Part shown: in pieces, positions 2,578 to 32,643 of the stretch | How the letters are laid out: each line of letters opens with the position of its first letter | How positions within the stretch are numbered: the stretch's first letter is position 1 | Virus record (IMG/VR): IMGVR_UViG_2740892229_000018 | Location: 1 to 32,643 of that record | Length of the DNA: 32,643 bases | Source of the DNA: a virus | Taxonomy: Duplodnaviria; Heunggongvirae; Uroviricota; Caudoviricetes | Direction: 5' to 3' (one strand) | Program-made: the position numbers and the translations under genes | Notes under the pieces: generated by a model | Database searches by the model: none | Told to the model about the DNA's origin: nothing | Seen by the model: only the letters and a program-made list of their open reading frames with translations

Positions 2578-4677
2578 TTAAAGAGGTGTTATGGTAAATG
2601 TTACATTTGTCTGGCTTGCACCAAGTGTTACTTCCAAATTCCCACCACTAACGCTGATAGAGGTTATCGAAATTCCAGAGCCACCATAGACAACCTGATT
2701 AGCGGTGTTTACAGAAAGCGTAGAACCATCATAGCTGAACGTAACCCCGTCAGCATAAGATTGATAGTTATTGACGCGTATTTTAAAAATCTCCCTATAA
2801 ACTGACGCGGCTCCTAAAAAACTAGGGAATGCGCCATTGATTTCTGTCAGTGGGATTTGGAAAGTTTTCCCAGGTCCAGAAAATCCCTTTTTGTGTTGGG
2901 ATACTCTGAATGTCTCATAGGAACCAGTTGACAGTAACTGCCCTCTATATGCTGATTCTTTATGAAATGCTTGTACTGACTCCGCATAATTTACGACACC
3001 TCTACCAACCCTTCCTGTGTCAATTTCTAATGTTGAACCAGTATCCACTAAAGATGCCGGGAAGTTAAATGTGGCACCATTCCAGAAGGTTATTCTGGGA
3101 ACGGTGATGTGGGTATTTACACCTGTAATTGTAAATAAGCGTTGGCGTTGTGTGCGTAGAGACAGGTTCAAAACAGCCGACGCTCCTCCGCTAGCCAGTA
3201 TCACTGCATTTGTAGTATCTATAGTGTCGTAGCAGTTGAAGGTCAGCGCTGCCGAACCAGCTACCATATTTATGTACGCGTTCGCTGACGGTGACGGACT
3301 CTCCGCACCAATATCACCAGCAACGTCACACTCTGAAAAATAATAAGATGAACCACCAGAAACACTACCTGCGTTATCGCATGCCGTTGATTGAAAGTTT
3401 ATGTACTGGCATCTTTCCATATGCCATCCATCTAACTCAGCGCCGGCCACATAGCAGCTGCTTATATGTAGACTTGTTGCTGCTTGGTTAACTGCTGCTG
3501 CTGGCGTCCCGCCTGTAGAGGTAAAGCGTGCTGCGTCATAAAAGACACCGTGAGATGTATTCTCAGAGAATCGGCATAAGGTAAGCCCACCTAACCAACC
3601 GCTTTTAACCCACAGACCATGTTTACAACCTCTGGTTCTCACTTTCTCAATGGAGTAGCCAACAACCTGCGGCATATAAATACCAACAGGTCGGTTGTCA
3701 GATGGCGCTAAATGACAGTCAATATATCCACCACTGAATGTCCAGTATCGGCAGATATCATTTCCGCCGATAAGGAAGACGCAGTTAACATCGCCTTCTA
3801 CGTAAGCTCCTTGCGTGGGAATGTATGCATCAAGTCCAGTAGTGGTAGTTGATGTTTTAACAATTGTAGATTCGCCGAGATTTACCGACCAATAGTCAGT
3901 AGCCTGCAATAAAACAGGTTGGTCTATAAGATAGCCACGACCTTTTTCGTCAGGTGTTTTAATCTTACCAAGAGAATCGAACATGTTCTGGAATGCAGCG
4001 GATGAGGAGGTTGCTCCAGACGGTAAAGAGCCATCATCCTGAACTTCAAAGGACACTGCGCCGAAGTCATCTACAGTTACATTTTCTTTATTTACCCGCT
4101 CCCAGTACCACATGGATGACACCACAGCGATTATGCCGCCATCATCGGATGGAATATTAGACATTCCAACTGTAGAGCGGGCAATAAATTCTCCACCACC
4201 TGTACGACCTCCCGAGTAGTAAGATGCCAGAAGAATTCTCTGACCTCCTACTTCTGGAACAATGGTTCGTAGTTCATCAAAAGAATCTACCTGACCGATT
4301 AACTTAAATCCATCAACGCCAGAAAGACGCTTCTCAAATTGGTCAGGGTCGTACTTCAACACATTAGGGAAATAGAACTGCTGCGCCCCATATGCATCGT
4401 ACACAGCCATAGAATGGCCTTGCCCGGTAACGAATTTGGCAATCTGTCCGTTATATACCGGATAACCAGCAGCGTTAATGATGATTGGTTGAGAAACAGG
4501 AACGTGAGAACCGTCTTCGTTCTCTACATAAACCTGAATCCGGTTTTCAGGATTTACCGGATCCGTGTCAATTTTACCGATATAAATTTCGCCATTGGCA
4601 ACTGCTTTAAAAGAACGCGCCATAGTGAAGAGTTGCGAAGGCATCGATACGATCACATTGGCTGTAATGTCTGTCAT
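2578..4677 (-). CDS. tailspike protein with P22 gp9-like N-terminal head-binding domain and a divergent receptor-binding domain
   Basis: 699 aa; N-terminus [29 protein letters not shown]...[10 protein letters not shown] matches the conserved P22 tailspike head-binding domain from memory; the remaining ~580 aa do not resemble the P22 sequence I recall; GGAG RBS 6 nt upstream. Confidence 0.85.
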
Positions 4678-4777: not shown

Positions 4778-5707
4778 TCAGTAGTTATGTACTGAAGGAG
4801 GCAATTCTTTATTCTTAAGTCTCATCCATGCGGAAAGATTCGTTGGTCCGTCTGGCTCATTAATATCAACATCTCGTGTGTGGTTTATTAAAACGTCTCT
4901 CGCCATTCCGATAACATACGAGAACTCATGACCATAGTCGTAGCATCTGCCGGAATAGTTCGATTGAATTTGTTTTAATGCCGGATACAGTTCGCGGAAT
5001 AATGCCTGTGAGCGGTTGGCATAATCCCATAACCATACAAGGCTGTTTGCTTCTTTTGCAGAAAGCTCGTTGGTTTTCTTCTCTTGTTTGCCGATTAACT
5101 CGCCTTCAAGCGGAACGCGAGCTGCAAGTGACAGAGCTTCGGTAAACTGCTCCTCGCTGATTTCTTTGTATGAACACCCAAAATGGGATTTCAGTGATGA
5201 CCACATGGTGATCATCGCCTTAGCCTGTTTTTCTTTTGGCAGAGACTGACCGCGACTCATGACGAGTTGTTTAATGGCTTCCTGCTGTTCAGTGGTGATT
5301 TTACCCGGCAACGCCTTTTTAGCTTTGCGTGGGTTAACTACATGGCCTTTAGTCCAGTACTCGTATAGCACATCGTCACACTCTTCTTGATACTGGATTA
5401 CATTGTCGCGGATTTCAGGGCGGACTTTGTTAGGGCTGATGGTTTGCAGCCAGCCAGCAAGTTTGCGAAGTGCCAAACAAATAATCTCACGGCACTGTTC
5501 ATCACCAGGAAGCTGCATTGTGATTTTCACAATGGAGGTTTTAAACCGTTGCTTTATTTTCGTAAACTGTGAAGCCCAATCCATACCCATGCCTTCAACG
5601 ATAGGTTTCATTGGGGTGTACGGCTCACCGTTGTGATTGACGACATAAAGCTCTGCGCCGTGGAATGGCACGTTGATAGTAGATACCGCTGTTGCTATAC
5701 TTTTCAT
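4778..5707 (-). CDS. ant: antirepressor Ant (immI region)
   Basis: Sits directly downstream of arc on the same strand, as in P22 immI. ATG at 5707 ([12 protein letters not shown]...) preferred over the track's upstream TTG at 5773. Confidence 0.7.
5672..5700 (+). promoter_or_regulatory. Psar-like promoter antisense to the ant start
   Basis: TTGATA (5672-5677), exact 17-bp spacer, TATACT (5695-5700) on the plus strand; predicted start lies at about the ant start codon. Confidence 0.45.
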
Positions 5708-5775
5708 GTCAATATTTCCTAATCCGATTTGTTGATACCGAAGCCCTGACTGTTCCAGCAGTTGGGGCTTCAACT
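5706..5775 (+). ncRNA. sar: candidate sar-like antisense RNA covering the ant RBS and the arc-ant spacer
   Basis: Transcript from the Psar-like promoter would run about 70 nt to a 7-bp hairpin gaagccc(5740-5746)/gggcttc(5765-5771); matches the size and position of P22 sar RNA; the U-tract is weak. Confidence 0.4.
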
Positions 5776-5937
5776 TTACGCGCCAATGCGCCCTTCCTTC
5801 TTAAAGCTTTCCATTACTCTCTGATAAATCTCAGAGTTAACAGACCGACCATTCTCTTCCGCCACCTTGCGTACCAAATCCAATACTTCTTTAGGCCACC
5901 GCAAATTGAACTGCGGCATCTTGCTCATTCCTTTCAT
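5776..5937 (-). CDS. arc: Arc repressor (ribbon-helix-helix)
   Basis: 53-aa product [53 protein letters not shown], essentially the P22 Arc sequence as I remember it. Confidence 0.93.
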
Positions 5938-5952
5938 ATTCACCTCACAATA

Positions 5953-5971
5953 TAGGTTCACCGTGGACCTA
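5953..5971. promoter_or_regulatory. Mnt operator (O_mnt)
   Basis: Near-perfect dyad TAGGTTCACCGTGGACCTA, placed just downstream of the Pant -10 as in P22. Confidence 0.6.
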
Positions 5972-6000
5972 TTGAGAATATAGTAGAGTGCTTCTATCAT
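5972..6000 (+). promoter_or_regulatory. Pmnt-like promoter
   Basis: TTGAGA (5972-5977), 17-bp spacer, TATCAT (5995-6000), divergent from and overlapping Pant. Confidence 0.45.
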
Positions 6001-6001
6001 G
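5976..6001. promoter_or_regulatory. Arc operator
   Basis: gaatatagtagagtgcttctatcatg is the reverse complement of the P22 arc operator CATGATAGAAGCACTCTACTATATTC as I recall it; lies between the Pant -35 and -10. Confidence 0.7.
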
Positions 6002-6005
6002 TCAA
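5977..6005 (-). promoter_or_regulatory. Pant promoter
   Basis: Minus-strand TTGACA (6000-6005), 17-bp spacer containing the Arc operator, TATATT (5977-5982). Confidence 0.6.
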
Positions 6006-6027
6006 CACACTAACTTGGAGTGATGGC

Positions 6028-6279
6028 ATGGCTAGAGATGATCCGCACTTTAACTTCCGTATGCCTATGGAAGTAAGGGAGAAATTAAAATTCAGGGCGG
6101 AGGCGAATGGGAGATCAATGAACTCCGAGTTGTTACAAATCGTCCAAGATGCTCTATCAAAACCATCGCCTGTGACTGGATATCGTGACGATGCAGAACG
6201 ACTCGCTGATGAGCAGTCAGATCTTGTTAAGAAGATGGTGTTTGATACGCTGAAGGATTTGTACAAAAAAACCACCTGA
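6028..6279 (+). CDS. mnt: Mnt repressor
   Basis: 83-aa product MARDDPHFNFRMPMEVREKLKFRAEANGRSMNSELLQIVQDAL... near-identical to P22 Mnt from memory. Confidence 0.93.
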   Translation: MARDDPHFNFRMPMEVREKLKFRAEANGRSMNSELLQIVQDALSKPSPVTGYRDDAERLADEQSDLVKKMVFDTLKDLYKKTT

Positions 6280-6378
6280 CGGTGAGTTAATTTTTGCATT
6301 TACCTGGGCCATATTGACTACTTATAAAATGAGATCAATATTTAATCGCCCAATAACGGGTGTATGTTGAGGTATATC

Positions 6379-9352: not shown

Positions 9353-10701
9353 TAATCACCCCATAAAGACGAGAAACCGGACTTATTGCTGTCGCTTCCT
9401 GATTTTCGCTCACTAACATATGTGTCATAACCTGATGAACTATATCCCATTGATTCAGCCTCCCTTGCTGCAACCTTTTGAAATACAGAATATTGCGATC
9501 GGATTTCAGATAACTGTTTTCTGACGACCTCTTCAGGCTGTGTTATATCGAGTTTCGCGATAAGGTTTTCCAGTTTTTGTCCTTCAGCATTGGAGAGGCT
9601 ACCCATACCTCGCATAGTCTGCACGTTCTGGACAAACGCACCCGACTTTAATTCTTCTATCGCATTACGGTTTGCAAGCCCTTCAGCACTTGTGAAGCCA
9701 TCTATATTTCTTCCTTCGAAGCGACCGATACCTTCAAGCTCCTTCTTACCAAGCAAAGAATCTATTTTCTCTATCCCTCGCTCACCAGTAATCAACGCAT
9801 TGTTGTAATTATTGTTGCCATCAAGCCATCTCTTAGCCTGAGACATTCTGGCTGACGTTGCAGCTTTACCGGTTAGCGGATCAATTCCCGTCGCTGCTAT
9901 CTGTGAGTTAAGAGACAAAACATCCATATCCTGAAGTTGTCCTGCTCTTTCAAGGGCCGCCTGTGACTGCTTAAACACATACTTGTCGTGATTCAGTCTT
10001 GCCATTTGAGCCTTATAGGAAAGATCCTGCCCCCTAATAGCCCTCGCATTCGTCATGTCATTATTGCGAATGGTTTCGTTAATTCTTTGCTGCTCCTGCT
10101 GGCGACCAACCATCTTGTCCTGAACAGCAAACGCCTTTTCTGGTCCAAGCGCACCGAGAGACATAGTAGTCAGCATGTGTGATAGCTGCTCTGGATTCTG
10201 GATACCTGTCTGAATCATCCAGTCAGCATTAGCACCAACGCGATTTAACCTGTCCTTGTTATCAGTAATGAATTTACTGTAGGCTTCCGGTCCCTGAGAA
10301 AGAGCGACGTTAGCCCTCATGGCTAAATCGCCCATATCGTTGCGTTGCTGCTCATTAAGACCGGAAAACGCCTGTTGTGCCTGTGCAACAAACGCTGGAT
10401 TTTCCTGGGCAAACTTAAATAGTCCCGATGGATCACCAGAAGCCCATGCATCAGCGTGAACCTTATTGAACGCACTAATAGCTTTCTGTTGCTGTTCCTG
10501 ATTGTAAATATCAGCAACTCCAGCCAGACCACGTAACGCGGTCAGACCAACGTTATTTGCACCTGAGCGAGCCAGTTCATTGTTTTCGCGGATCAGACCA
10601 AGCGTTGCGTTAATGTCGCTTGCCTTTGGCGCATTCTCATTTTGCGTACCGATGCCAGCCAGAAAACCACCAGAATTAATACCCTGTTGCCACGTAGCCA
10701 T
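9352..10701 (-). CDS. DNA-ejection protein, P22 gp20-like
   Basis: 449 aa; assigned by position and size in the P22 ejection-protein block. Confidence 0.65.
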
Positions 10702-25605: not shown

Positions 25606-25892
25606 GGCTTAATCTTCCCCTCCTTCAGCAGTATCGCCTGCGTCCTGATCACGCCTTCGAGGTGGTAAAGTCTGGCGTCTTTGTTGTCGAGATTATGGGT
25701 GCGTCGGTCGATTTCATCGTGACACGCGCTACAAGCCCATGCGCCGATCAGGTCGTCAGGCTTCATTCCAGTTCCGCAAATTCCAGCCATCCGGTAATGT
25801 GCCAGAACTGTAGTTTCAGGATTGCCATTGCATACGCCGTAAATACGTACCTGGCATTCTCTGCCGCGCGCTTCTTTGCGTAGGTTAGCCAT
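25602..25892 (-). CDS. DUF1364 / YbcO-like putative nuclease
   Basis: 96 aa with Cys-rich motif ECQVRIYGVCNGNPETTVLAHYR; adjacent to rusA as ybcO is in DLP12. Confidence 0.7.
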   Translation of the reverse strand: MANLRKEARGRECQVRIYGVCNGNPETTVLAHYRMAGICGTGMKPDDLIGAWACSACHDEIDRRTHNLDNKDARLYHLEGVIRTQAILLKEGKIKP

Positions 25893-26614
25893 TAAGCAGC
25901 CTCCCCTGTTACTTTCAGCATTCCGTTATCGAGCAGCTTTCTGGTCAGCCACTGTTGACCACGCCCGGTGATTTTTGTGGTGAACGATATCTGTATTCCG
26001 TGATTTGTATTGACCGCTGTTTCTTTCACTGTGAAATAGCCGCGCTCCATATATTCCTGCATTGGCACATTGCGCCGGGAACCTGAAGCAATAAGGATTT
26101 TGTGATCGCGCATCCACGCAAACAGTTTGTTTGGACCAATACCGACAACCTTTGCAAAGTTTCCAATCAAAATTCCGCTGGCCTCGCCAACGCGTTCGGC
26201 AAACTCAACTTTAGGTGCGGCAATTGCGAGCTGGTTTTCTAGTTGCATTTTCTGCTCAGCAAGATCAGCAGCAAGGCGCAACGCTTCTGGTAGCGTTTTG
26301 GGGATATTAACCGCAGCTTCTTCAAGCTCTCGCCAGCGGTCAACAAGGCGAGCGGTGAATTCCGGCGACAACTGGGCTACAACGACAATACTGTCTCGCT
26401 TTCCTTGTTCGCCTTCGAATGCATACACACAAAAACTTTGATTTAAGCCTAACCCATTGATTCTTCCACAATCCTCAATTTGAGGAAGCCGGATAACACC
26501 ATTCTTAGCCAGCGTTTCGATGGTACGTTTCACATTGTCATGACGCTTACCCACCAACTCAGCGATTTCAATGCTTGTCATTTTGATGGCATTGCCATTT
26601 ATTAACTCATTCAT
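25892..26614 (-). CDS. antirepressor-like protein, KilAC domain
   Basis: 240 aa occupying the position of ninG in lambda; N-terminal regulatory domain and C-terminal KilAC-like domain, assigned from memory. Start uncertain (26614 or 26581). Confidence 0.6.
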   Translation of the reverse strand: MNELINGNAIKMTSIEIAELVGKRHDNVKRTIETLAKNGVIRLPQIEDCGRINGLGLNQSFCVYAFEGEQGKRDSIVVVAQLSPEFTARLVDRWRELEEAAVNIPKTLPEALRLAADLAEQKMQLENQLAIAAPKVEFAERVGEASGILIGNFAKVVGIGPNKLFAWMRDHKILIASGSRRNVPMQEYMERGYFTVKETAVNTNHGIQISFTTKITGRGQQWLTRKLLDNGMLKVTGEAA

Positions 26615-31063: not shown

Positions 31064-31211
31064 GTTTCACTCCTGCTTTGGCTAGTCTGTAAACACCAAC
31101 AAGGCGCTCTGCGAACGCCCTGTTATTTGCTGCGGCTACCACTAATCCCTCAGGTGAATCAGGGTGTCGAATCTCTTCTTTTTCCTGGTATTTCTTACGA
31201 CGTTTTGTCAT
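31050..31211 (-). CDS. hypothetical 53-aa basic protein between cII and the initiator gene
   Basis: [53 protein letters not shown] from ATG 31211 with AGGAG RBS 7 nt upstream; the RBS/start context looks like the lambda O start as remembered; below the ORF-track length cutoff. Confidence 0.35.
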   Translation of the reverse strand: MTKRRKKYQEKEEIRHPDSPEGLVVAAANNRAFAERLVGVYRLAKAGVKHGRR

Positions 31212-31243
31212 AATTACTCCTGTGGATTGATCCAGTAATGACC

Positions 31244-31537
31244 TCAGAATTCCATCTGGATTTGTTCAGAACGCTCGGTTGCCGCCGGGCGTTTTTTATT
31301 GGTGAGAATCGAAGCAACTTGTCGTGCCAATCGAGCCATGTCGTCGTCAACGACGCCCCATTCAAGAACAGCAAGCAGCATTGAGAACTTTGGAATCCAG
31401 TCCCTCTTCCACCTGCTGATCTGCGACTTATCAACTCCCACAGCTTCCGCTGTCTTCTCAGTTCCAAGCATTGCGATTTTGTTAAGCAACGCACTCTCGA
31501 TTCGTAGAGCCTCGTTGCGTTTGTTTGCACGAACCAT
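31244..31537 (-). CDS. cII: transcriptional activator CII
   Basis: 97 aa MVRANKRNEALRIESALLNKIAMLGTEKTAEAVGVDKSQISRWKRDWIPKF..., essentially lambda CII from memory. Confidence 0.93.
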   Translation of the reverse strand: MVRANKRNEALRIESALLNKIAMLGTEKTAEAVGVDKSQISRWKRDWIPKFSMLLAVLEWGVVDDDMARLARQVASILTNKKRPAATERSEQIQMEF

Positions 31538-31547
31538 ATGTAAGTAT
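31515..31547 (+). promoter_or_regulatory. pRE-like promoter with CII-binding site
   Basis: TTGC-N6-TTGC (31515-31528) with AAGTAT-like -10 about 31541-31546, antisense to the cII start and directed toward cI. Confidence 0.6.
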
Positions 31548-31613
31548 TTCCTTAGATAACAATTGATTGAATGTATGCAAATAAATGCATACACCATAGG
31601 TGTGGTTTAATTT

Positions 31614-31649
31614 GATGCCCTTTTTCAGGGAGGTGATGTGTAAGAGCGG
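31614..31649 (-). promoter_or_regulatory. nutR-like site (boxA + boxB)
   Basis: Minus-strand CGCTCTTA (boxA) then CCCTGAAAAAGGG (boxB hairpin), starting 9 nt after the cro stop. Confidence 0.65.
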
Positions 31650-31656
31650 GAATGTC

Positions 31657-31872
31657 TTAAGCGGCTTTGTGTTCCGGCGGGAACACGTCATCAAGACTGA
31701 CTTTTGCGCCTAACTTGTTTAGGCACTCAACAAGAGCACGGCATGTTTTAAGGTCTGGGAAGCGACGACCAGATTCCCAATGTCCGATAGCTCCCTGTGT
31801 GCATCCAACTGCCTTAGCAAGTGTTGTTTGAGAGATACTCAGTGACTCTCGATATTTTCGTAGGTTGCTCAT
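31657..31872 (-). CDS. cro: Cro-like HTH repressor (non-lambda immunity)
   Basis: 71 aa MSNLRKYRESLSISQTTLAKAVGCTQGAIGHWESGRR... with XRE-type HTH; GGAGG RBS; divergent from cI and upstream of nutR and cII. Confidence 0.75.
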   Translation of the reverse strand: MSNLRKYRESLSISQTTLAKAVGCTQGAIGHWESGRRFPDLKTCRALVECLNKLGAKVSLDDVFPPEHKAA

Positions 31873-31898
31873 ATGCCCTCCATAGTAACCATGAAACA

Positions 31899-31927
31899 AT
31901 AATACGATATGTACTTTTAGAATGCAA
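31899..31927 (-). promoter_or_regulatory. PR-like promoter for cro
   Basis: Minus-strand TTGCAT (31922-31927), 17-bp spacer, TATTAT (31899-31904), about 25 nt upstream of the cro ATG. Confidence 0.5.
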
Positions 31928-31983
31928 GCAAAAAATACATCTTGTGCATGGATGGTTTTAGTACAGAGCGTAATAATAAGGGT

Positions 31984-32643
31984 ATGAAAATGAAATGGTA
32001 TGAACTGGCTAGATCCAGAATGAAAGAGCTCGGCATAACTCAAGAGAAGTTAGCTGAAGAGCTTGGTATGACGCAGGGTGGAATTGGTCACTGGTTGCGC
32101 GGATCTCGTCATCCATCTCTTGACGAGATTGGTGTGGTGTTTAAATACCTTGGTATTGATAACGTCTCATTCAACCACGACGGTACATTTTCACCTGTTG
32201 GCGAATACTCATCTGCCCCCGTTAAAAAACAATATGAGTACCCTGTTTTTTCTCATGTTCAGGCAGGGATGTTCTCGCCTGAGCTTAGAACCTTTACCAA
32301 AGGTGATGCGGAGAGATGGGTCAGCACAACCAAAAAAGCCAGTGATTGTGCGTTTTGGCTTGAAGTTGAAGGTAATTCCATGACCGCGCCAACAGGCTCC
32401 AAGCCAAGCTTTCCTGACGGAATGTTAATTCTCGTTGACCCCGAGCAGGCTGTTGAGCCAGGTGATTTCTGCATAGCCAGACTTGGTGGTGACGAGTTTA
32501 CCTTCAAGAAACTGATCAGGGATAGCGGTCAGGTGTTCCTACAGCCACTAAACCCGCAATATCCAATGATTCCATGCAATGATAGCTGTTCCGTAGTAGG
32601 GAAAGTTATCGCCAGCCAGTGGCCTGAAGAGACATTTAGTTAA
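31984..32643 (+). CDS. cI: CI-type prophage repressor (HTH plus S24 LexA-like autopeptidase domain)
   Basis: N-terminal [23 protein letters not shown]; C-terminal domain with GNSM and ending [16 protein letters not shown] like lambda CI as I recall; start at 31984 or 31990; stop codon is the last triplet of the window. Confidence 0.85.

Follow-up and report, generated by a model that had tools for sequence, protein, structure and literature searches.

A VT2-Sakai-type immunity cassette joined to a lambda/434-type nutR-cII segment in a probable P22-like Escherichia coli prophage

The final 1.4 kb of the IMG/VR record IMGVR_UViG_2740892229_000018 (a 32,643-nucleotide stretch of Caudoviricetes DNA, here called the window) constitute a lambdoid immunity and establishment region, in reversed orientation relative to the lambda map. 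We consider this region very probably to be the immC lysis/lysogeny switch of a P22-like (Sf6/HK620-type, Lederbergvirus) E. coli prophage integrated at argW, composed of two known modules. Comparison by BLAST with fetched reference loci assigned cro, the control region and the entire cI gene (31657-32643) to an immunity cassette of the type found in the Shiga toxin (Stx)-converting phage VT2-Sakai (Sp5; AP000422), and the nutR-tR1-pRE-cII-oop segment (31204-31668; pRE, promoter for repressor establishment) to a lambda/434-type module. Over its full length the cassette was 92.6% identical to VT2-Sakai at the nucleotide level, and the Stx1 phage of E. coli O157:H7 Morioka V526 matched it equally well. 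The second module was 97.3% identical to lambda (31204-31650 versus lambda 38247-38693) and 97.4% identical to phage 434 (31204-31668). Its left edge (31204) is the start codon of the adjacent gene, at the place where lambda has O. The window ends with the last base of the cI stop codon, and the control region between the divergent cI and cro genes measures 117 bp. The immunity type is known and widespread and the mosaic is of the ordinary lambdoid kind; what sets the sub-lineage apart is solely the module that adjoins cro on its right, of lambda/434 type here and of HK022 type in VT2-Sakai.

The two modules and their joints

The sequence identities, domain content and junction positions are shown by the sequence, as are the operator motif and its conservation. 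The cI gene (31990-32643, + strand) encodes a repressor with a Pfam HTH_3 domain at residues 9-56 (HTH, helix-turn-helix) and a Peptidase_S24 domain at residues 85-207. The N-terminal DNA-binding domain (residues 1-81, 31990-32232; HTH_3 E=8.3e-11, exceeding the gathering score) is of VT2-Sakai type, with 78 of its 81 amino acids identical and the three differences (D45, E46 and V59) located outside the recognition helix TQGGIGHW; it is unrelated in sequence to that of lambda CI. The linker and the C-terminal self-cleavage and oligomerisation domain (32233-32643; Peptidase_S24 E=8.7e-29) are of lambda type: from Y82 onward CI equals lambda CI except at three positions (C120, D198 and the last residue), and 32233-32637 was 94% identical to lambda cI at the nucleotide level. 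The predicted cleavage site A92-G93 and the predicted catalytic residues S130 and K173 align with A111-G112, S149 and K192 of lambda. By sequence, CI has the build of a LexA/CI-type repressor, an N-terminal HTH followed by an S24 domain with an Ala-Gly site and a Ser/Lys dyad.

The junction within cI lies at 32232|32233, in codon Y82 (equivalent to lambda Y101), in the inter-domain linker and ten residues before the A-G cleavage site. Ahead of the shared C-terminal domain, position 32232 is the final one at which the window sides with VT2-Sakai and not with lambda, and the next 32 nucleotides are identical in all three. The chimeric cI was not formed in this lineage, because VT2-Sakai cI has the same junction (overall, 209 of 217 CI residues are identical). 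This junction is old and all Sakai-type repressors have it, which makes the chimera a property of a known family. The depositors of VT2-Sakai already annotated its cI as 'similar to bacteriophage lambda CI'. Within the C-terminal domain, 18 of 19 informative sites over 32265-32496 were shared with lambda and six of seven over 32539-32616 with VT2-Sakai, which suggests a later allele exchange inside the shared domain that would have left the DNA specificity untouched. Alternative cI start codons are present at 31984 and 31948, the latter being the call of the Prokaryotic Genome Annotation Pipeline. A start at 31948 is unlikely: four substitutions separate the 36 nucleotides upstream of 31984 from VT2-Sakai, and all of them would be non-synonymous if 31948-31983 were coding.

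The cro gene (31657-31872, - strand) encodes a 71-residue lytic repressor with an HTH_3/XRE fold (Pfam HTH_3 E=1.4e-11) that is also of VT2-Sakai type. It shares 69 of 71 residues with VT2-Sakai Cro, the substitutions at positions 12 and 49 both falling outside the HTH, and a gapped global alignment to lambda Cro yielded only 20 identities. The recognition helices TQGAIGHW of Cro and TQGGIGHW of CI are each identical to the VT2-Sakai counterpart, and the HTH domains of the two proteins are paralogous (35% identity over 62 amino acids, E=5e-13). Residues 1-69 of Cro also match chain A of PDB entry 28tn, an 82-residue 'lambda repressor-like protein' (E=2.4e-16), and this solved structure might be a usable template for Cro proteins of the Sakai type.

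The right-hand joint was located by a five-way alignment in the 12-nucleotide patch AAAGCCGCTTAA (31657-31668, - strand), which covers the final three codons of cro and its stop (K-A-A-stop) and is common to the cro 3' ends of the window, VT2-Sakai, 434 and Sf6. Similarity to 434 spans 31204-31668 and similarity to VT2-Sakai begins at 31657. Directly past the cro stop the window tracks 434, Sf6 and lambda (GACATTCCCGCTCTTACACAT...), whereas VT2-Sakai continues with a nut site of its own and a cII like that of HK022. We place the exchange point in the patch because two otherwise unrelated cro families have it in common. The patch is a typical lambdoid boundary sequence, and the record of Sf6 annotates 'bsq' boundary-sequence elements of a comparable kind.

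In the lambda/434-type module, cII (31244-31537, - strand; Pfam Phage_CII E=1.7e-48) encodes a transcriptional activator of pRE with 96 of 97 residues identical to lambda CII. The CII-binding repeats TTGC-N6-TTGC, which flank the -35 region of pRE, are present as an exact match (TTGCGTTTGTTTGC; 31515-31528, + strand). The bare pattern occurs six times in the window with 2.5 matches expected; it is not this count that makes the site meaningful but the 100% nucleotide identity to lambda of the stretch that contains it (31489-31621). Transcription from pRE runs rightward (+ strand), antisense through cro into cI, and carrying over the lambda position would put its start near 31554. The region holds both components of the lambda establishment circuit, the CII protein and a TTGC-N6-TTGC site at a promoter antisense to cro. 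A homologue of the oop antisense RNA (31222-31298, + strand) overlaps the 3' end of cII in the alignment to lambda; its end coordinates were carried over from lambda oop. It contains a terminator-like hairpin (31268-31295) followed by a T-run, and the stretch 31242-31341 is 96-98% identical to lambda. Rfam, applied to the whole window at the gathering threshold, gave no hit in the immunity region (the matches elsewhere were the sar RNA and one tRNA), and the oop and nutR assignments therefore rest on the lambda alignment. The tR1/rut region (31560-31650, - strand), delimited by alignments to lambda, 434 and Sf6, contains nutR, with boxA CGCTCTTA (31641-31648, - strand) identical to that of lambda and boxB TCCCTGAAAAAGGGC (31617-31631, - strand) matching lambda boxB (GCCCUGAAAAAGGGC) at 14 of 15 positions with an intact GAAAA loop. 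A boxA followed by a boxB hairpin between cro and tR1 is the lambda-type arrangement of nutR.

These results bear out the anatomy given in the original prediction, which had proposed a lambda-like cII, pRE and nutR joined to an XRE-type Cro unrelated to that of lambda, and a CI with a lambda-like C-terminal S24 domain but a different N-terminal domain whose HTH resembles that of Cro (GGIGHW versus GAIGHW). The CII sequence and the lambda-identical pRE stretch agree with it, as do boxA and a boxB that differs at its first base only, the Pfam match and low lambda identity of Cro, the near-complete lambda match of CI from Y82 onward and the paralogy of the two HTH domains. Aligning CI and Cro, as was recommended there, placed the recombination points where they had been expected, in the inter-domain linker of cI (32232|32233) and at the 3' end of cro. 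The features ascribed to 31538-32643 do exist, but cII and the TTGC site fall just to the left of 31538.

Operators, promoters and the proposed switch

We found three putative operators in the control region that fit the pattern ARTAC-N5-GTAYT. OR1 (AATACGATATGTACT, 31901-31915) is a perfect match that lies between the -35 and -10 of the putative rightward promoter pR, OR2 (AATACATCTTGTGCA, 31934-31948) has two mismatches to the consensus and is centred at about -43 from the inferred start of the putative maintenance promoter pRM, and OR3 (AGTACAGAGCGTAAT, 31960-31974) has one mismatch and overlaps the -10 of pRM. The operator cores were transferred from the VT2-Sakai and Stx1-phage records, which give three putative 17-bp operators each at the right (OR) and left (OL) operator regions. 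With at most one mismatch the pattern had only two hits in the 32.6-kb window, both in the 117-bp gap between cro and cI. At up to two mismatches there were 32 hits window-wide with 30.8 expected, which speaks against enrichment; this is a weak test because the pattern was derived from these very sites. The informative support comes from the clustering, the hits with at most one mismatch, the copy at OL and the conservation.

The conservation is clear from the comparison of the two diverged cassettes. Between the window and VT2-Sakai, none of the 30 half-site positions in OR differed versus 17 of 82 positions elsewhere in OR (Fisher p=0.0055). The DNA between the operators has diverged, 31896-31945 being only 78% identical. 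OL was judged from the sister locus in E. coli 2013C-4991 (99.9% identical), where the interval from cI to N holds three more sites (AATACAAAGCGTTAT, AGAACATTTTGTATT and AGTACAAATCGTACT), overlapping a TTGACT-17-TACTAT sequence that is likely to be pL, the leftward promoter. The half-sites of OL differ from those of VT2-Sakai at one of 30 positions, so that 59 of 60 are identical over OR and OL together. All differences from VT2-Sakai inside OR1, OR2, OL1 and OL2 fall in the central N5, and OR3 is identical. Read along the same strand, the operators at OR are spaced by 33 and 26 bp, and those at OL (positions 9524-9596 of the sister locus, L005) by 33 and 25 bp. The two arrays are direct and not mirror-image copies, with the wide gap lying between sites 1 and 2 at OR and between sites 2 and 3 at OL. 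The operators had earlier been called weakly defined, a judgement that no longer holds for three sites that fit one pattern, once OL of the sister genome is added. The two half-site strings quoted in that connection are real and correspond to OR1 and OR3; OR2 had been missed.

Both promoters of the control region are predictions from the sequence. The putative pR (31899-31927, - strand) reads TTGCAT-17 nt-TATTAT, has a predicted start near 31892 and is followed by a GGAGGG Shine-Dalgarno sequence and the ATG of cro; it is equivalent in position to the 'putative major rightward promoter' in AP000422 and AP005153. The putative pRM (31948-31976, + strand) has a weak -35 (ATGGAT, 31948-31953), a 17-nucleotide spacer and a -10 (TAATAA, 31971-31976), and corresponds in position to the 'putative maintenance promoter for cI' in AP000422. 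Transcription would begin around 31983-31984, on the first ATG in ATGAAAATGAAATGG, and would give a leaderless mRNA like that of lambda pRM. The placement of OR2 near -43 and of OR3 on the -10 of pRM is the geometry of lambda. The sole hit of a simple sigma-70 promoter scan (TTGAGA-17-GATATT, on the + strand inside cro) was dismissed as noise, as 1.5 hits are expected by chance.

The following mechanism is drawn by homology with lambda and 434; the promoter positions, the order in which the operators are filled, the cooperativity, the cleavage and the homoimmunity with VT2-Sakai are inferred. CI dimers bound to OR1, OR2 and the OL sites beyond the window would block pR and pL. At OR2, CI would probably activate the weak pRM, and the overlap of OR3 with the -10 of pRM would provide negative autoregulation. 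The lambda-type C-terminal domain would mediate dimerisation and presumably cooperativity and looping, and RecA-stimulated cleavage of CI at A92-G93, involving S130 and K173, would lead to prophage induction. Cro, as a paralogue of the N-terminal domain of CI, would bind the same sites and shut off pRM. After infection, a lambda-type N protein loaded at boxA/boxB would allow transcripts from pR to pass tR1, and CII would fire pRE to give an RNA antisense to cro together with cI mRNA, and thereby establish lysogeny; oop RNA would counter cII.

Distribution of the cassette and alternative explanations

With VT2-Sakai the window shares the full length of cro-OR-cI, the junction in the cI linker and three OR operators in the same layout. 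On sequence grounds it falls in the VT2-Sakai immunity group, with identical recognition helices and identical OR half-sites and arrangement, OL being judged from the sister genome. The two differ to the right of the cro stop, where VT2-Sakai has its own nutR and an HK022-like cII (a gapped alignment of the two CII proteins gave 33 identities) and the window the lambda/434 module, and in that VT2-Sakai is an Stx-converting Traversvirus and the phage of the window a P22-like Lederbergvirus. Lambda has in common with the window cII, pRE, tR1, nutR and oop, the C-terminal domain of CI with its catalytic residues, and a divergent cI/cro pair with three operators. The window lies outside the lambda immunity group: the N-terminal domain of CI and Cro are unrelated in sequence and have no meaningful identity with their lambda counterparts, and the lambda operator consensus TATCACCGCCAGTGGTA found no match in the window at up to three mismatches. 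Further differences are that Cro of lambda has another fold and that no rexAB follows cI in the sister genome. The natural 434-immunity phages 434 and Sf6, as well as the laboratory hybrid lambda imm434, share the nutR-cII module, with similarity extending 12 nucleotides into the 3' end of cro. As in the window, the repressor and Cro of 434 have paralogous XRE domains with near-identical recognition helices; the C-terminal domain of the 434 repressor, however, is not lambda-like. CI and Cro of the window show weak, family-level similarity to the 434 proteins. Membership of the 434 immunity group is contradicted by the absence from the window of the operator pattern ACAA-N6-TTGT and by PDB matches to the 434 repressor that are weak (E about 0.1-0.3).

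The Stx1 and Stx2 phages of Morioka V526 (O157:H7) also have the VT2-Sakai immunity type, as do Nil2, 2851, 1717 and YYZ-2008. The core of this type (31657-32230) is present in 776 of 5426 complete E. coli genomes (14%), including UTI89 and O157:H7 strains, and the E. coli records fall into two bands, with 212 at an identity of at least 95% and 566 at 90-95%. Five deposited phages (vB_EcoP-720R6, vB_EcoP-683R2, phi458, Louie and Dewey) and 62 complete E. coli genomes carry the exact combination of a Sakai-type cI/cro with a lambda/434-type nutR-cII. The deposited phages and the 2013C-4991 prophage are 97.6-99.9% identical to 31200-32643 at the nucleotide level. CI is 100% identical to the annotated cI product of vB_EcoP-720R6, from which Cro and CII each differ by one residue, and all three proteins are 100% identical to their counterparts in 2013C-4991. 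Phages with the combination are viable and temperate: the plaques of Louie and Dewey are turbid and their lysogens self-immune (PMC11990801), and phi458 is a prophage that is spontaneously induced and forms plaques (PMC9701743).

The prophage of 2013C-4991 (NZ_CP027355.1, 421030-453672; loci L005 and L006) has an early region that is 98-99.9% identical to that of the window from the replication genes to cI. Its late genes are unrelated to those of the window and encode a baseplate and tail-assembly proteins of the contractile-tail type, with an embedded Arc/Ant cluster. With the same early region joined to different late genes, this comparison shows that the cassette travels as a module and that whole arms are exchanged between P22-like and other lambdoid prophages.

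Some observations weigh against the identification of the region as a working immC switch of the lambda kind. As the window extends no further than the cI stop codon, OL, pL, nutL and N are visible only in the sister genome, where L005 encodes an N that carries the arginine-rich motif of lambda and where nutL is of lambda type (boxB GCCCTGAAGAAGGGC). The centres of OR1 and OR2 are 33 bp apart versus 24 bp in lambda, so that pairwise cooperativity of the lambda style is an assumption; this spacing is the one architectural point at which the lambda mechanism cannot simply be taken over. The sigma-70 scan called neither pR nor pRM, both being below its threshold. In the literature searched we found no biochemical data on the cognate CI or Cro at these operators. 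The VT2-Sakai switch was annotated previously and has been used in silico, and the only electrophoretic mobility shift work found on its sites concerned lambda CI, with binding at micromolar concentrations only (PMC10742460), a result that is uninformative about cognate recognition. Finally, the first base of boxB is changed from G to U in the RNA (+ strand position 31631), a change that is private to this window: 2013C-4991, 720R6, 434 and lambda all have G. It cuts the stem from 5 to 4 bp, and the predicted hairpin is no longer the minimum-energy fold. Across the 5426 complete E. coli genomes, even the best match to the variant carries one mismatch over 70 nucleotides, and the exact 32-mer with the U is absent from IMG/VR. 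The change could be neutral, mildly disabling for antitermination by N, or a sequencing error. This private, hairpin-destabilising base and a left arm that is not open to inspection are what would suggest a cryptic prophage in which the switch is decaying and has lost its regulatory logic, which we regard as improbable: every open reading frame (ORF) from int through cI is intact, the late genes match HK620, Sf6 and 611R6 at 96-97% identity, a deposited phage has the same CI, other phages that carry this cassette are viable, and N may well still bind a 4-bp stem whose GAAAA loop is intact.

Two further explanations concern the specificity of the cassette. The original prediction held that a distinct immunity specificity had been created here by recombination inside cI and downstream of cro. 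The mosaic boundaries at 32232|32233 and 31650-31668 fit this proposal, and the split in site sharing along the C-terminal part of cI (first with lambda, then with VT2-Sakai) indicates that allele exchange probably occurred there. We nevertheless consider it very improbable. The proposal is not supported, because the cassette, the chimeric C-terminal domain and the junction are all present in VT2-Sakai, where the entire cro-OR-cI unit is already deposited and annotated; the same cI junction recurs in hundreds of E. coli genomes as well as in Nil2, 2851, 1717, YYZ-2008 and the Morioka V526 Stx1 and Stx2 phages. Neither the recognition helices nor the half-sites, which determine DNA binding, have changed, and exchanges in the C-terminal domain leave the operator specificity as it is. 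The finding that had been named as decisive against the proposal, full-length identity of CI and Cro to one characterised phage, was made in spirit and not to the letter: CI and Cro are 96% and 97% identical to those of VT2-Sakai, and CI is 100% identical to that of vB_EcoP-720R6. Somewhat less unlikely, but still improbable in our view, is that the cassette represents a heteroimmune sub-type of the Sakai family, in which a nucleotide divergence of about 6%, with altered operator centres and inter-operator DNA, has shifted the affinities so far as to end cross-repression with VT2-Sakai. The 78% identity of 31896-31945, the differences of OR1, OR2, OL1 and OL2 in the uncontacted N5 and the two identity bands of the core among E. 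coli records would agree with this, and in phage 434 the central operator bases tune the affinity of the repressor. Against it stand the 59 of 60 identical half-site positions and the identical recognition helices of CI and Cro, the three substitutions in the N-terminal domain and both in Cro being located outside the HTH. A Sakai-type cassette of probably unchanged DNA specificity, next to a lambda/434-type partner module, remains the reading that we prefer.

Prophage context and implications

The remainder of the window shows the organisation of a P22-like prophage. A host yfdC-like gene of the formate/nitrite-transporter family (1-933) and tRNA-Arg(CCT), argW (1009-1083), are followed by a P4-type integrase gene (1209-2426), convergent with the tailspike gene (2578-4677, - strand). 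Sf6, N7 and HF4s match from position 1069, inside the 3' end of the tRNA, which marks the att core. The location of int beside the tailspike gene might be taken to indicate a rearranged prophage; this was rejected, as the same three phages match from 1069 and the order attP-int-tailspike is normal in this phage group. The tailspike, for which vB_EcoP-611R6 is the best match, has a conserved P22-type head-binding domain (residues 1-113), and its receptor-binding part has no match in HK620, the matches to which start at 4340. Because that part is not matched, the O-antigen specificity of the tailspike probably differs from that of HK620.

Next to the tailspike gene lies an immI region of P22 type (4778-6299), with the gene of the antirepressor Ant (4778-5773, - strand; P22_AR_N and P22_AR_C domains) and the sar antisense RNA (5709-5775, + strand; Rfam RF00262, 68 bits). 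The small ORFs upstream of Ant are probably arc and mnt. The immI region would constitute a second control layer, acting on the Sakai-type CI by inactivation of the repressor. Onward from immI come the virion genes, with 96-97% identity to HK620, Sf6 and 611R6, then the lysis genes, Q, the nin region, O-like and DnaB-like replication genes and finally the immunity region. A second antirepressor-like gene, with a Rha N-terminal domain and a KilAC/ANT C-terminal domain, lies in the nin region (25892-26614, - strand), so that the prophage may encode two different antirepressors.

The novelty of the immunity region itself is low, as the cassette, the chimeric repressor and the putative operators are already present in the VT2-Sakai and Morioka records and identical proteins occur in RefSeq and in isolated phages. 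That lambdoid phages exchange modules at the borders of genes and domains is textbook knowledge. The region is a clean natural example of it, in which a 12-nucleotide patch at the 3' end of cro and a shared repressor C-terminal domain act as the homology patches by which an immunity core is moved from one phage background to another. In addition, the comparison of two diverged copies of the cassette lends support to the putative operator assignment ARTAC-N5-GTAYT.

The most consequential implication is that of a toxin-free P22-like prophage with the repressor specificity of the Stx2a phage Sp5/VT2-Sakai, which would render its strain immune to Sakai-type Stx phages; on the basis of the sequence comparison we lean slightly towards accepting this. 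If it is true, CI of this prophage would add to the repressor pool that silences a co-resident Stx prophage, and the widespread commensal prophages of this type could shape both the range of strains open to Stx-phage conversion and the release of toxin. The predicted homoimmunity of common non-Stx prophages with Sakai-type Stx phages thus bears on the spread of Stx phages.

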